A DNA stretch of 64,000 nucleotides from Octopus vulgaris. Taxonomy: Eukaryota. The DNA is taken from the NCBI GenBank assembly GCA_951406725.2, contig OX597816.1, positions 177,010,001-177,074,000 of the forward strand. The letters are read 5' to 3'. A model generated the notes under the pieces. It was not told where the DNA came from, did no database searches, and saw only the letters and a program-made list of their open reading frames with translations. Shown here piece after piece: positions 35,638-37,571 of the stretch (position 1 is the first letter of the stretch; each line of letters begins with the position of its first letter). A program made the translations under genes and the position numbers.

Positions 35638-35747
35638 ATACAAGGGCTGATTTGATTAATTAAAACATTTCAACGCAGCTACCCAACACAGTTGCAGTAA
35701 AAGAGTAAATATATATACATATATACTGGTTTCACATAAATACATGT

Positions 35748-35784
<37 letters not shown>

Positions 35785-36125
35785 GCAGAATCTTGTCCCA
35801 GTTTTAACAATGAATACTCCAGTTACTCATTCCGTTGATCTACCTACTCATTGCATTTGATTCTTTGGACATAAACCTCAAATAGAATCAGAATGACACG
35901 ATAAGAGAGATGGGCTTCTAGAAAACCTGTCTATACTCCGGTATATAGATATATAAACAATTTGATGGACTGAAAGATGGCTAGATATCTATCTAGCCAT
36001 CTTTCAGAATGGTATATATATATATATATATATACCATTCTCTCTTAATGCTGAATGAATGATGAAAGAATGCTCTATACATGTTACAGTGGATATGGTT
36101 CTTTTTATTGAAACTGAAGTCAGGG

Positions 36126-36177
<52 letters not shown>

Positions 36178-36928
36178 TTCTCACTTTCTCCTCATCCATC
36201 ACCCTCTTGTACTGTCTTATATTCCTCCCCACCACTACAAAACTCAATACCACTATAAAATGGTCGAAACTCTTCAGCCAGGAACTTAGTTTGATTTGAA
36301 AACCCCACTAGAATGGGAGAAAGCGCTAATACATGATCTAAGTTATATGATGTATAAAAATTGTAATATACAAATAAATATCTGTAAATATAAAACCATC
36401 CGATTTTCTGAGTACCTCATTTCTTCTAATATAAAATACCTGTACATTATCTCCAAACCTCCCAATATATATATATATATATATATATATAACAATGATA
36501 AATCTCAGAGCGAATTATAAACAGTAGCAGCAACACATTGTGACGTATATTTGCCATTTGAATATGGCTAACCCCTAAGGGTGGATGCTACTGTAGTTTG
36601 TAGCCCCAGGAGGACACCTCCTCCAGCTGGCTATAGACACACTTTCTGTGCCCTATCAGTATTTGCGAAAGGAAGCCATGTTTATATCTATCTATCTATA
36701 TATATATATATATATATATTATTATTATATTTGTATCTATCTATTTATCTATCTATATATATATCTATATACCGGAGTATAGACAGGTTTTCTAGAAGCC
36801 CATCTCTCTTATCGTGTCATTCTGATTCTATTTGAGGTTTATGTCCAAAGAATCAAATGCAATGAGTAGGTAGATCAACGGAATGAGTAACTGGAGTATT
36901 CATTGTTAAAACTGGGACAAGATTCTGC

Positions 36929-36975
<47 letters not shown>

Positions 36976-37085
36976 ACATGTATTTATGTGAAACCAGTAT
37001 ATATGTATATATATTTACTCTTTTACTGCAACTGTGTTGGGTAGCTGCGTTGAAATGTTTTAATTAATCAAATCAGCCCTTGTAT
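35638..37085. repeat. Inverted repeat, arms 35638-35955 / 36758-37085
   Basis: About 320-bp arms, identical by eye except for (TG)n length. Confidence 0.95.
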
Positions 37086-37088
37086 AAA

Positions 37089-37126
37089 CTGTCCGACGAA
37101 CGGGAACATGAAATTCCGAGTAACAG
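37089..37126 (+). ncRNA. Degenerate type I hammerhead motif
   Basis: ctgt-CCGACGA(core U4>C)-acg ggaa cat-GAAA-ttccgag-TA-acag: stem I ctgt/acag, GNRA loop on stem II. Confidence 0.6.
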
Positions 37127-37571
37127 CTTTTGTTAAATTTCTGCTGCTTTTAAATAAAGTATCTATCTATCTATCTATCTATCTATCTACATATATATAG
37201 GTGTGTGTGTGTGTGTGTGTGTGTTTATATCTTTTATCTTTACTTGTTTCAGCCACTAGACTGTGGGTATGCTGGGGTACCCTCTTCAATTTTAGTTGAA
37301 TGAATTGACCCCCCAGTACTTCATTTTCTTTTAAGAAGTGGTACTTATCCTGTCAGTCTCTTTTGCTGAACTGCTAAGTTACAGAGACACAAACACAACA
37401 ACACTGGTTGTCTAGAGGTGATGGGAGAGGGGGATAAACACAAGCAAACATACATAAATAAACACACACACACACACATGTACAATGTGGTAGGACTGAA
37501 TGCAGAACATGGAACCAATCTATCTGTCTACCTAGTTATATACTGATTTATATAAACACTTTGATACACGG

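Follow-up and report, generated by a model that had tools for sequence, protein, structure and literature searches.

At positions 35638–37085 of the window, the 64-kb stretch of Octopus vulgaris DNA that was analyzed as a whole, a segment of low-copy host DNA is followed by a substitution-free inverted copy of itself. The inverted pair is real in the assembly and very young. Judged by its sequence, the locus appears to behave like known local fold-back templated insertions, and the reading we favor, at a probability of roughly 45%, is host fold-back repair of a break in a TA/TATC tract, with the repeat module that abuts the copy already in place. Because mirror copies occur nearby without an adjoining ribozyme, the locus is likely a repair scar of a known kind and not a new ribozyme activity.

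The inverted pair and its support in the assembly

The features of the locus are listed with strand, where one was assigned, and with the basis of each assignment.

35516–35720 (−): decayed copy of the window's common SINE, crossing the left arm's outer end (alignment to window SINEs)
35638–35955 (+): left arm, the template, low-copy host DNA (self-alignment; shallow contig coverage of the corresponding arm sequence in 3 of 4 runs)
35942–35955 (+): TA/TATC-like 14-nt site complementary to the copy start, likely site of a putative priming (sequence)
35970–36041: two abutting small hairpins (folding, z −8.6)
36050–36128 (+): worn hammerhead-like remnant (by eye; descriptor not passed)
36168–36456: fragment of a very high-copy repeat, flanked by TA tracts (contig depth)
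36500–36687: piece of a very high-copy, strongly folded repeat (contig depth, folding)
36683–36757 (+): TA/TATC tract where the copy begins, likely site of a putative break (sequence, tandem-repeat listing)
36758–37085 (−): right arm, inverted copy of 35638–35955 with no substitutions (self-alignment)
37086–37159 (+): module, fragment of a very high-copy repeat, carrying a type I hammerhead-like motif (contig depth, descriptor; no Rfam match)
37160–37189 (+): (TATC)7.5 tract closing the module (tandem-repeat listing)

End-to-end alignment of 35638–35955 with the reverse complement of 36758–37085 gave 318 identities, 0 mismatches and one 10-nt gap, which bears out the near-perfect reverse complement described in the initial annotation. 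The left arm measures 318 nt and the right arm 328 nt, and an 802-nt spacer lies between them. Their sole difference is the 10 nt in a (TG)n/(CA)n tract, which is longer in the right arm.

The direction of copying was assessed from the decayed SINE. The 93 nt outside the left arm scored 42–49 against the window's young SINE copies (the highest score among 300 shuffles was 33), whereas the 93 nt outside the right arm scored 20–22 against the same copies, a level equalled by 96 of 300 shuffles. The portion of the SINE within the left arm is weaker (score 29, equalled by 11 of 300 shuffles). Because the SINE extends beyond the left arm only, the left arm is the original and the right arm the copy, as had been proposed.

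Both junctions lie within TA-type sequence, with microhomology of up to 14 nt at the inner and about 3 nt at the outer junction. At the inner junction, the TA/TATC tract spans 36683–36771, that is, it runs into the copy start, and the 14-mer at 35942–35955 has a single occurrence on its strand in the window; since it is located in simple sequence, 14 nt is an upper bound for the priming homology. At the outer junction, the final 3 nt of the copy, TAT, would be equally assignable to a TA tract preceding the module. No TA tract lies between copy and module, and the two abut inside one TATC-type tract. The right arm ends 3 nt before helix I of the hammerhead-like motif at 37089. The placement given in the initial annotation, in which the copy starts in a TA/TATC tract and stops 3 nt short of a motif followed by (TATC)n, was recovered in full, the motif itself being weak and non-canonical.

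Copy number was assessed with contigs of 4 of 24 listed sequencing runs, aligned to 35960–37500 at 90% identity. The arm was covered in three of the four runs by single mismatch-free contigs over 36775–36907 or 36775–36922, with depths (78, 67 and 7.6) comparable in order of magnitude to those of the other single contigs there. The arm bin 37000–37051 was also low in 3 runs, and run X4 had no arm coverage. Over the module bin 37104–37155 the summed contig depth was 6e4–4e5 in 4/4 runs, and over 36168–36687 it reached up to 1.9e6. Summed depth does not equal copy number, and the contrast between arm and module amounts to three to four orders of magnitude. On this contrast, the module classes as a dispersed repeat, and the arm does not belong to a dispersed TIR family. 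When exact patterns of the module were searched, the metagenome, viral and prokaryote collections gave 0 loci; for the neighboring repeat, the metagenomes likewise gave 0. Both results are uninformative for the octopus genome.

Two long, perfectly matching inverted arms that enclose 802 nt look like a pair of TIRs of a dispersed DNA transposon, or like two copies of a repeat family, and a dispersed TIR family had been named with the initial annotation as one objection to be faced. The arm proved to be low-copy by the depths above, measured in the same runs as those of the module. In addition, the left arm cuts through a SINE, and a repeat-pair search of the 64-kb window found no third copy of the arm. 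The TIR/MITE reading is largely refuted at 90% identity or more for the covered portion of the arm, and we regard it as extremely improbable.

The same contigs bear on whether the copy is an error of assembly or an allele carried only by the assembled animal. Among the 4 runs no contig was found across the outer junction, the inner junction lay in a stretch left out of the alignment as repetitive, and both copy junctions are documented by the assembly alone. In 3/3 arm-covering runs, contigs ran uninterrupted past the arm's inner end, by 32, 16 and 188 letters (X1, X3 and X2). In the sampled animals the copy may be absent or heterozygous, or its TA-rich branch may have been clipped during assembly. 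We nevertheless consider an artefact or private allele improbable, given that the (TG)n lengths of the arms differ, that 802 nt of other sequence lie between them with distinct flanks on both sides, and that similar pairs with 1–8 substitutions are present in the window. The arm depths of 78 and 67 exceed most single contigs (about 31–58 and 32–92) and are not clearly double, and an allele private to one animal would be no less real as an event.

The spacer and the abutting module

Within the spacer, 35970–36041 comprises a hairpin with 18-bp arms and a 2-nt loop plus a perfect 36-nt palindrome centered on TA; the segment has the appearance of a double snap-back within a TA tract, its putative origin. 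The repeat copy at 36168–36456 departs from most of its relatives at 4 to 6 listed sites. Between TA tracts, 36560–36685 folds strongly (z −4.0) and contains, on both strands, hammerhead-like words whose order is not canonical.

In the motif of the module, helix I is formed by 37089–37092 with 37123–37126, the core runs from 37093, GAAA lies at 37110–37113 and GUA at 37120–37122. Another register, with GTAA in place of GAAA, was replaced by this better one. The descriptor gives 4 bp for helix I, 3 bp including one mismatch for helix II, and 4 near-palindromic pairs for helix III. The type I core is described as C3 U4 G5 A6 N7 G8 A9 / G12 A13 A14 A15 / U16 H17 (PMC3088659), and the motif matches it at every position but U4, which here is C and places the motif outside a strictly defined core. 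In the accessible part of the same paper, U4C reduces in vitro activity, yet it is found in an infectious viroid (PMC3088659). The descriptor had been relaxed so as to catch the canonical hammerhead at 9258, and the score of the motif was reached 0–4 times per window in six shuffles. The lowest-energy fold of the module is not a hammerhead (z about 0.7). The Rfam hammerhead search gave 0 matches at gathering score in the window, a weak test because the canonical motifs at 9258 and 13077 were missed too; over 35500–37600, with E up to 10, no hammerhead family was among 41 matches. On its sequence, the 37089 motif is a marginal candidate hammerhead. Elsewhere in the window, canonical type I hammerheads with a palindromic helix III occur at 9258 (+), 13077 (+) and 58351 (−), with no Rfam match at gathering score.

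With tracts on both sides and the depth given above, the module fits a dispersed high-copy unit in a (TA)n-type target. It shares with Penelope-like element hammerheads (PMC4209133, as far as accessible) a hammerhead-like motif with a palindromic helix III, although it departs from the strict type I definition. No Pfam match to Penelope RT or GIY-YIG was obtained among 145 scanned reading frames, of which 143 came from 223 listed (80 were left out, mostly SINE-derived or overlapping); the scan excluded 155 shorter minus-strand frames. Broken LINE-type frames are present at 7316–8512 (−), 11780–12178 (+) and 55720–56013 (+); RVT_1 was matched by Pfam at 7867–8512, and the latter two frames were judged by eye.

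A target-site duplication of the module is indistinguishable, as a TATC-type tract lies on both sides. The inverted segment beside it is low-copy host DNA and not the element-derived inverted 5′ segment of a Penelope insertion. The contig comparison lists no near-fixed difference of this module from its family (one site, 37117, is variable), so the module is possibly as young as the arms. We take related octopus repeats to start directly after a TA tract; 37086 would then be a natural boundary and not a truncation, which we count against a break coupled to insertion of the module.

Local inverted pairs and the origin of the copy

With simple repeats masked, and local defined as a spacer under 3 kb, the window contains 13 two-copy pairs, of which the local ones are 5 inverted and 1 direct and the distant ones 3 inverted and 4 direct. 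Local pairs make up 5/8 of the inverted pairs versus 0.092 expected under random placement (p = 3e-4), and 4/7 without this locus (p about 0.002, by hand). The count omits 3837/3970, 21520/22788 and 38508/38790 through its masking, length and multiplicity filters. Overall, there are about seven local inverted pairs in the window, most of them within one probable intron. The six events other than the present one are as follows.

3837–3952 / 3970–4084: near-palindrome with a 17-nt spacer, 6 substitutions
8769–8853 / 8985–9070: older pair with 8 substitutions; its end lies in a TA tract, 188 nt short of the canonical hammerhead at 9258
19781/22599 chained with 21520/22788: one insertion (22599–22809) chaining inverted copies of 19781–19976 and 21520–21541, with templates 2.6 kb and 1.2 kb upstream, small palindromes at the insertion start, and no TA tract or hammerhead nearby
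29811–29867 / 30008–30064: 4 substitutions
38508–38557 / 38790–38839: 2 substitutions
61765–61984 / 62222–62445: young 220-nt pair, 1 substitution, one 4-nt indel, 237-nt spacer, 3.3 kb or more from any hammerhead match scoring 6 or more

Each of the six carries 1–8 substitutions, which indicates that such pairs persist here as aged DNA. Arm ends within 30 nt of a (TA)5 tract were found in two of the six, against 8.5% of positions. An A-to-G editing scar was looked for in the older pairs of the window and was not seen. In none of the six does an arm end come closer than 100 nt to a hammerhead match scoring 6 or more (range, 188 nt to 7 kb), so the copying process does not require the module. 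This control set is weakened by 8769/8985, which may represent an inverted end of Penelope type and not a copy of host DNA.

For the present locus we infer the following course, in which the module is older than the copy. A break would arise in the TA/TATC tract (36683–36757); TA repeats are reportedly DNA break sites (PMC13645644, PMC12972899). The left broken end would be resected, and its top strand would fold back over an 802-nt loop and pair with about 14 TA-type bases at 35942–35955. Host DNA polymerase would then extend the paired end by about 320 nt, and the extended end would be rejoined via about 3 bases (TAT) to the hammerhead-like repeat that was probably already there.

Several observations favor this course. 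What was inserted is low-copy DNA from close by in reverse complement; the template is intact in its context, and new junctions bound the copy. The putative homology of up to 14 nt at the inner and about 3 nt at the outer junction resembles that of yeast fold-back insertions, for which the accessible text gives 10 bp at the priming site and 0–5 bp at the joined end (PMC11724301). Local inverted pairs occur here without the module, 0/6 of them near a hammerhead; the chained event at 22599–22809 involves neither a TA tract nor a hammerhead; and the spacer carries the snap-back-like double hairpin centered on TA. Against a module already in place, a random break in the tract would often leave a TA tract before the module, and the module lacks listed near-fixed differences from its family. 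The initial annotation had proposed that a ribozyme-bearing element switched template onto neighboring DNA. What stands of that proposal is the inverted copy of neighboring low-copy host DNA and its start at TA/TATC microhomology; the ribozyme-bearing element as copier is not supported, given the distance of the controls from any hammerhead and the marginal motif. The module is confirmed as a high-copy repeat.

The break could instead have come with insertion of the module, a course that is the closest rival of the favored one, although less likely. A Penelope-type endonuclease would have cut the TA/TATC tract and the module would have been reverse transcribed from its right end, while the left reciprocal end was resected, folded back, extended by host polymerase and joined to the short cDNA. 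The copying chemistry would be identical to that of the favored course and the trigger different. Insertion would account for a copy and a module that abut, jointly inside one TATC-type tract, and would suit a module with no listed near-fixed differences. The accessible parts of published work describe a like geometry for L1, in one clone and one tumor (bioRxiv 10.1101/2024.12.14.628481), a purified Penelope-like protein that cuts and extends both strands of AT-rich DNA (PMC11167929), and (TA)n as a preferred target (PMC8557442). However, hammerheads are absent from the ends of the six other local inverted events, no target-site duplication is readable in the microsatellite, and the L1 cases, as far as described, had small hairpins, whereas the loop here is 802 nt.

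In its strong form, the idea in the initial annotation was that the element's own reverse transcriptase made the copy. Having copied the module, the enzyme would have switched, across about 3 bases, to either the nascent minus-strand pre-mRNA or the bottom DNA strand at 35638; from there a stretch of about 320 bases would have been copied, and the product joined to the TA end. The geometry permits this, since the host gene lies on the minus strand, the template strand that such a jump requires, and Penelope elements are described, in the accessible part of one report, as capturing host DNA and showing self-priming palindromes (PMC3846280). The copy, however, carries no substitution or A-to-G skew that would mark an RNA step, control pairs without the module exist, the route presupposes transcription of the intron, and hammerhead cleavage was unnecessary for insertion in vitro (PMC11167929, as far as accessible). 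We consider this route very doubtful.

Fold-back repair, the reading preferred here, was compared with known systems on the basis of those parts of the cited papers that were accessible. Local fold-back templated duplications in yeast (Yu et al. 2024) are mostly 5–34 bp, also 10 to over 150 bp, with a 41-nt loop (PMC11724301). They resemble the present locus in the inverted nearby flank, the loop between template and copy and the longer homology at the priming junction, and differ in that the break was induced there, whereas 318 nt and an 802-nt loop are seen here in an animal genome assembly. In the L1 case, inverted flank copies are ascribed to host repair of the reciprocal end, and the order of flank, inverted copy and retroelement 5′ end is shared, as is TA-type fold-back microhomology; unlike here, the setting is somatic or cultured human cells, with 2-bp homology and small hairpins, whereas the present repeat is a non-coding, candidate Penelope-type remnant whose insertion would be only putatively coupled to the copy (bioRxiv 10.1101/2024.12.14.628481). 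Penelope-like insertions likewise show an inverted segment directly 5′ of a short element piece and a (TA)n target, but there the element itself, as a 5′-truncated copy, is inverted, in contrast to low-copy host DNA here (PMC8557442, PMC3846280). Short-range template switches in apes, explained by a four-point model, are similarly germline inverted copies of a nearby template enriched in AT-rich DNA, with a median of 12 nt and a maximum of 128 nt, as against 318, 220 and 196 nt in this window (PMC7954356). SD-MMEJ snap-back repair (PMC5728401), small inverted triplications (PMC13334657) and local n-jumps (PMC7025897) share with the window hairpin-primed synthesis, of the kind suggested by 35970–36041, and the chaining of templates at 22599–22809; these differ from the present case in size range and setting, and the sequence assigns no enzyme. 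In the literature searched, with subscription journals and preprint supplements outside its scope, no prior report for octopus or Penelope elements was found.

Gene context and wider meaning

Two exons of one gene lie on the minus strand at higher window coordinates than the locus.

51684–51829 (−): exon for the second half of an Ig domain, with a GT donor at its end (Pfam, protein alignment)
54868–55027 (−): exon, first half of the Ig domain, same gene (Pfam, protein alignment)

The exon boundaries are AG and GTAAGT. A 656-aa protein labelled Octopus bimaculoides (P0001) shares 95% identity with the exon at 54868–55027 and 84% with that at 51684–51829. The segment of this homolog that follows was not found in the 64-kb window, and because that exon is absent, the inverted repeat probably lies in the following intron, which would exceed 51 kb. 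By eye, the Ig domain of P0001 is followed by an EGF-like segment and a membrane segment, where Pfam found Ig alone, a layout that we take to be like that of neuregulin/Vein.

When the plus strand of the locus was folded, the full 318-bp stem was predicted, and an intronic transcript would, on this model, form a 318-bp RNA stem. The hammerhead-like motif is antisense relative to the strand of the gene. Octopods belong to the animal group best known for extensive ADAR editing, and the idea that the locus could generate dsRNA gains context because the locus is probably intronic.

Other young dispersed repeats in the window, with 90% identity or more, are 50136–50514 / 59266–59665 and 23203–23439 / 43784–44011 / 53158–53395. 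The locus described here is best regarded as a clean young case of fold-back templated repair, a process already known, and the density and size of local inverted duplications are more interesting than the single locus. At 196–318 nt, these inverted copies exceed the ape germline catalogue, whose maximum in the accessible part of that study is 128 nt (PMC7954356). A broader proposal, which we think unlikely, is that Penelope-type cutting of TA tracts, the most abundant retroelement activity here, routinely leaves long, perfect germline inverted copies of unique host DNA, sometimes written by reverse transcriptase from a nascent host transcript. If true, about 7 local inverted pairs per 64 kb would represent a genome-wide, transposon-driven source of long intronic dsRNA from non-repetitive sequence. 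Whatever the trigger, if the density in this window holds genome-wide, local inverted duplication would be a common octopod source of long dsRNA from unique sequence.
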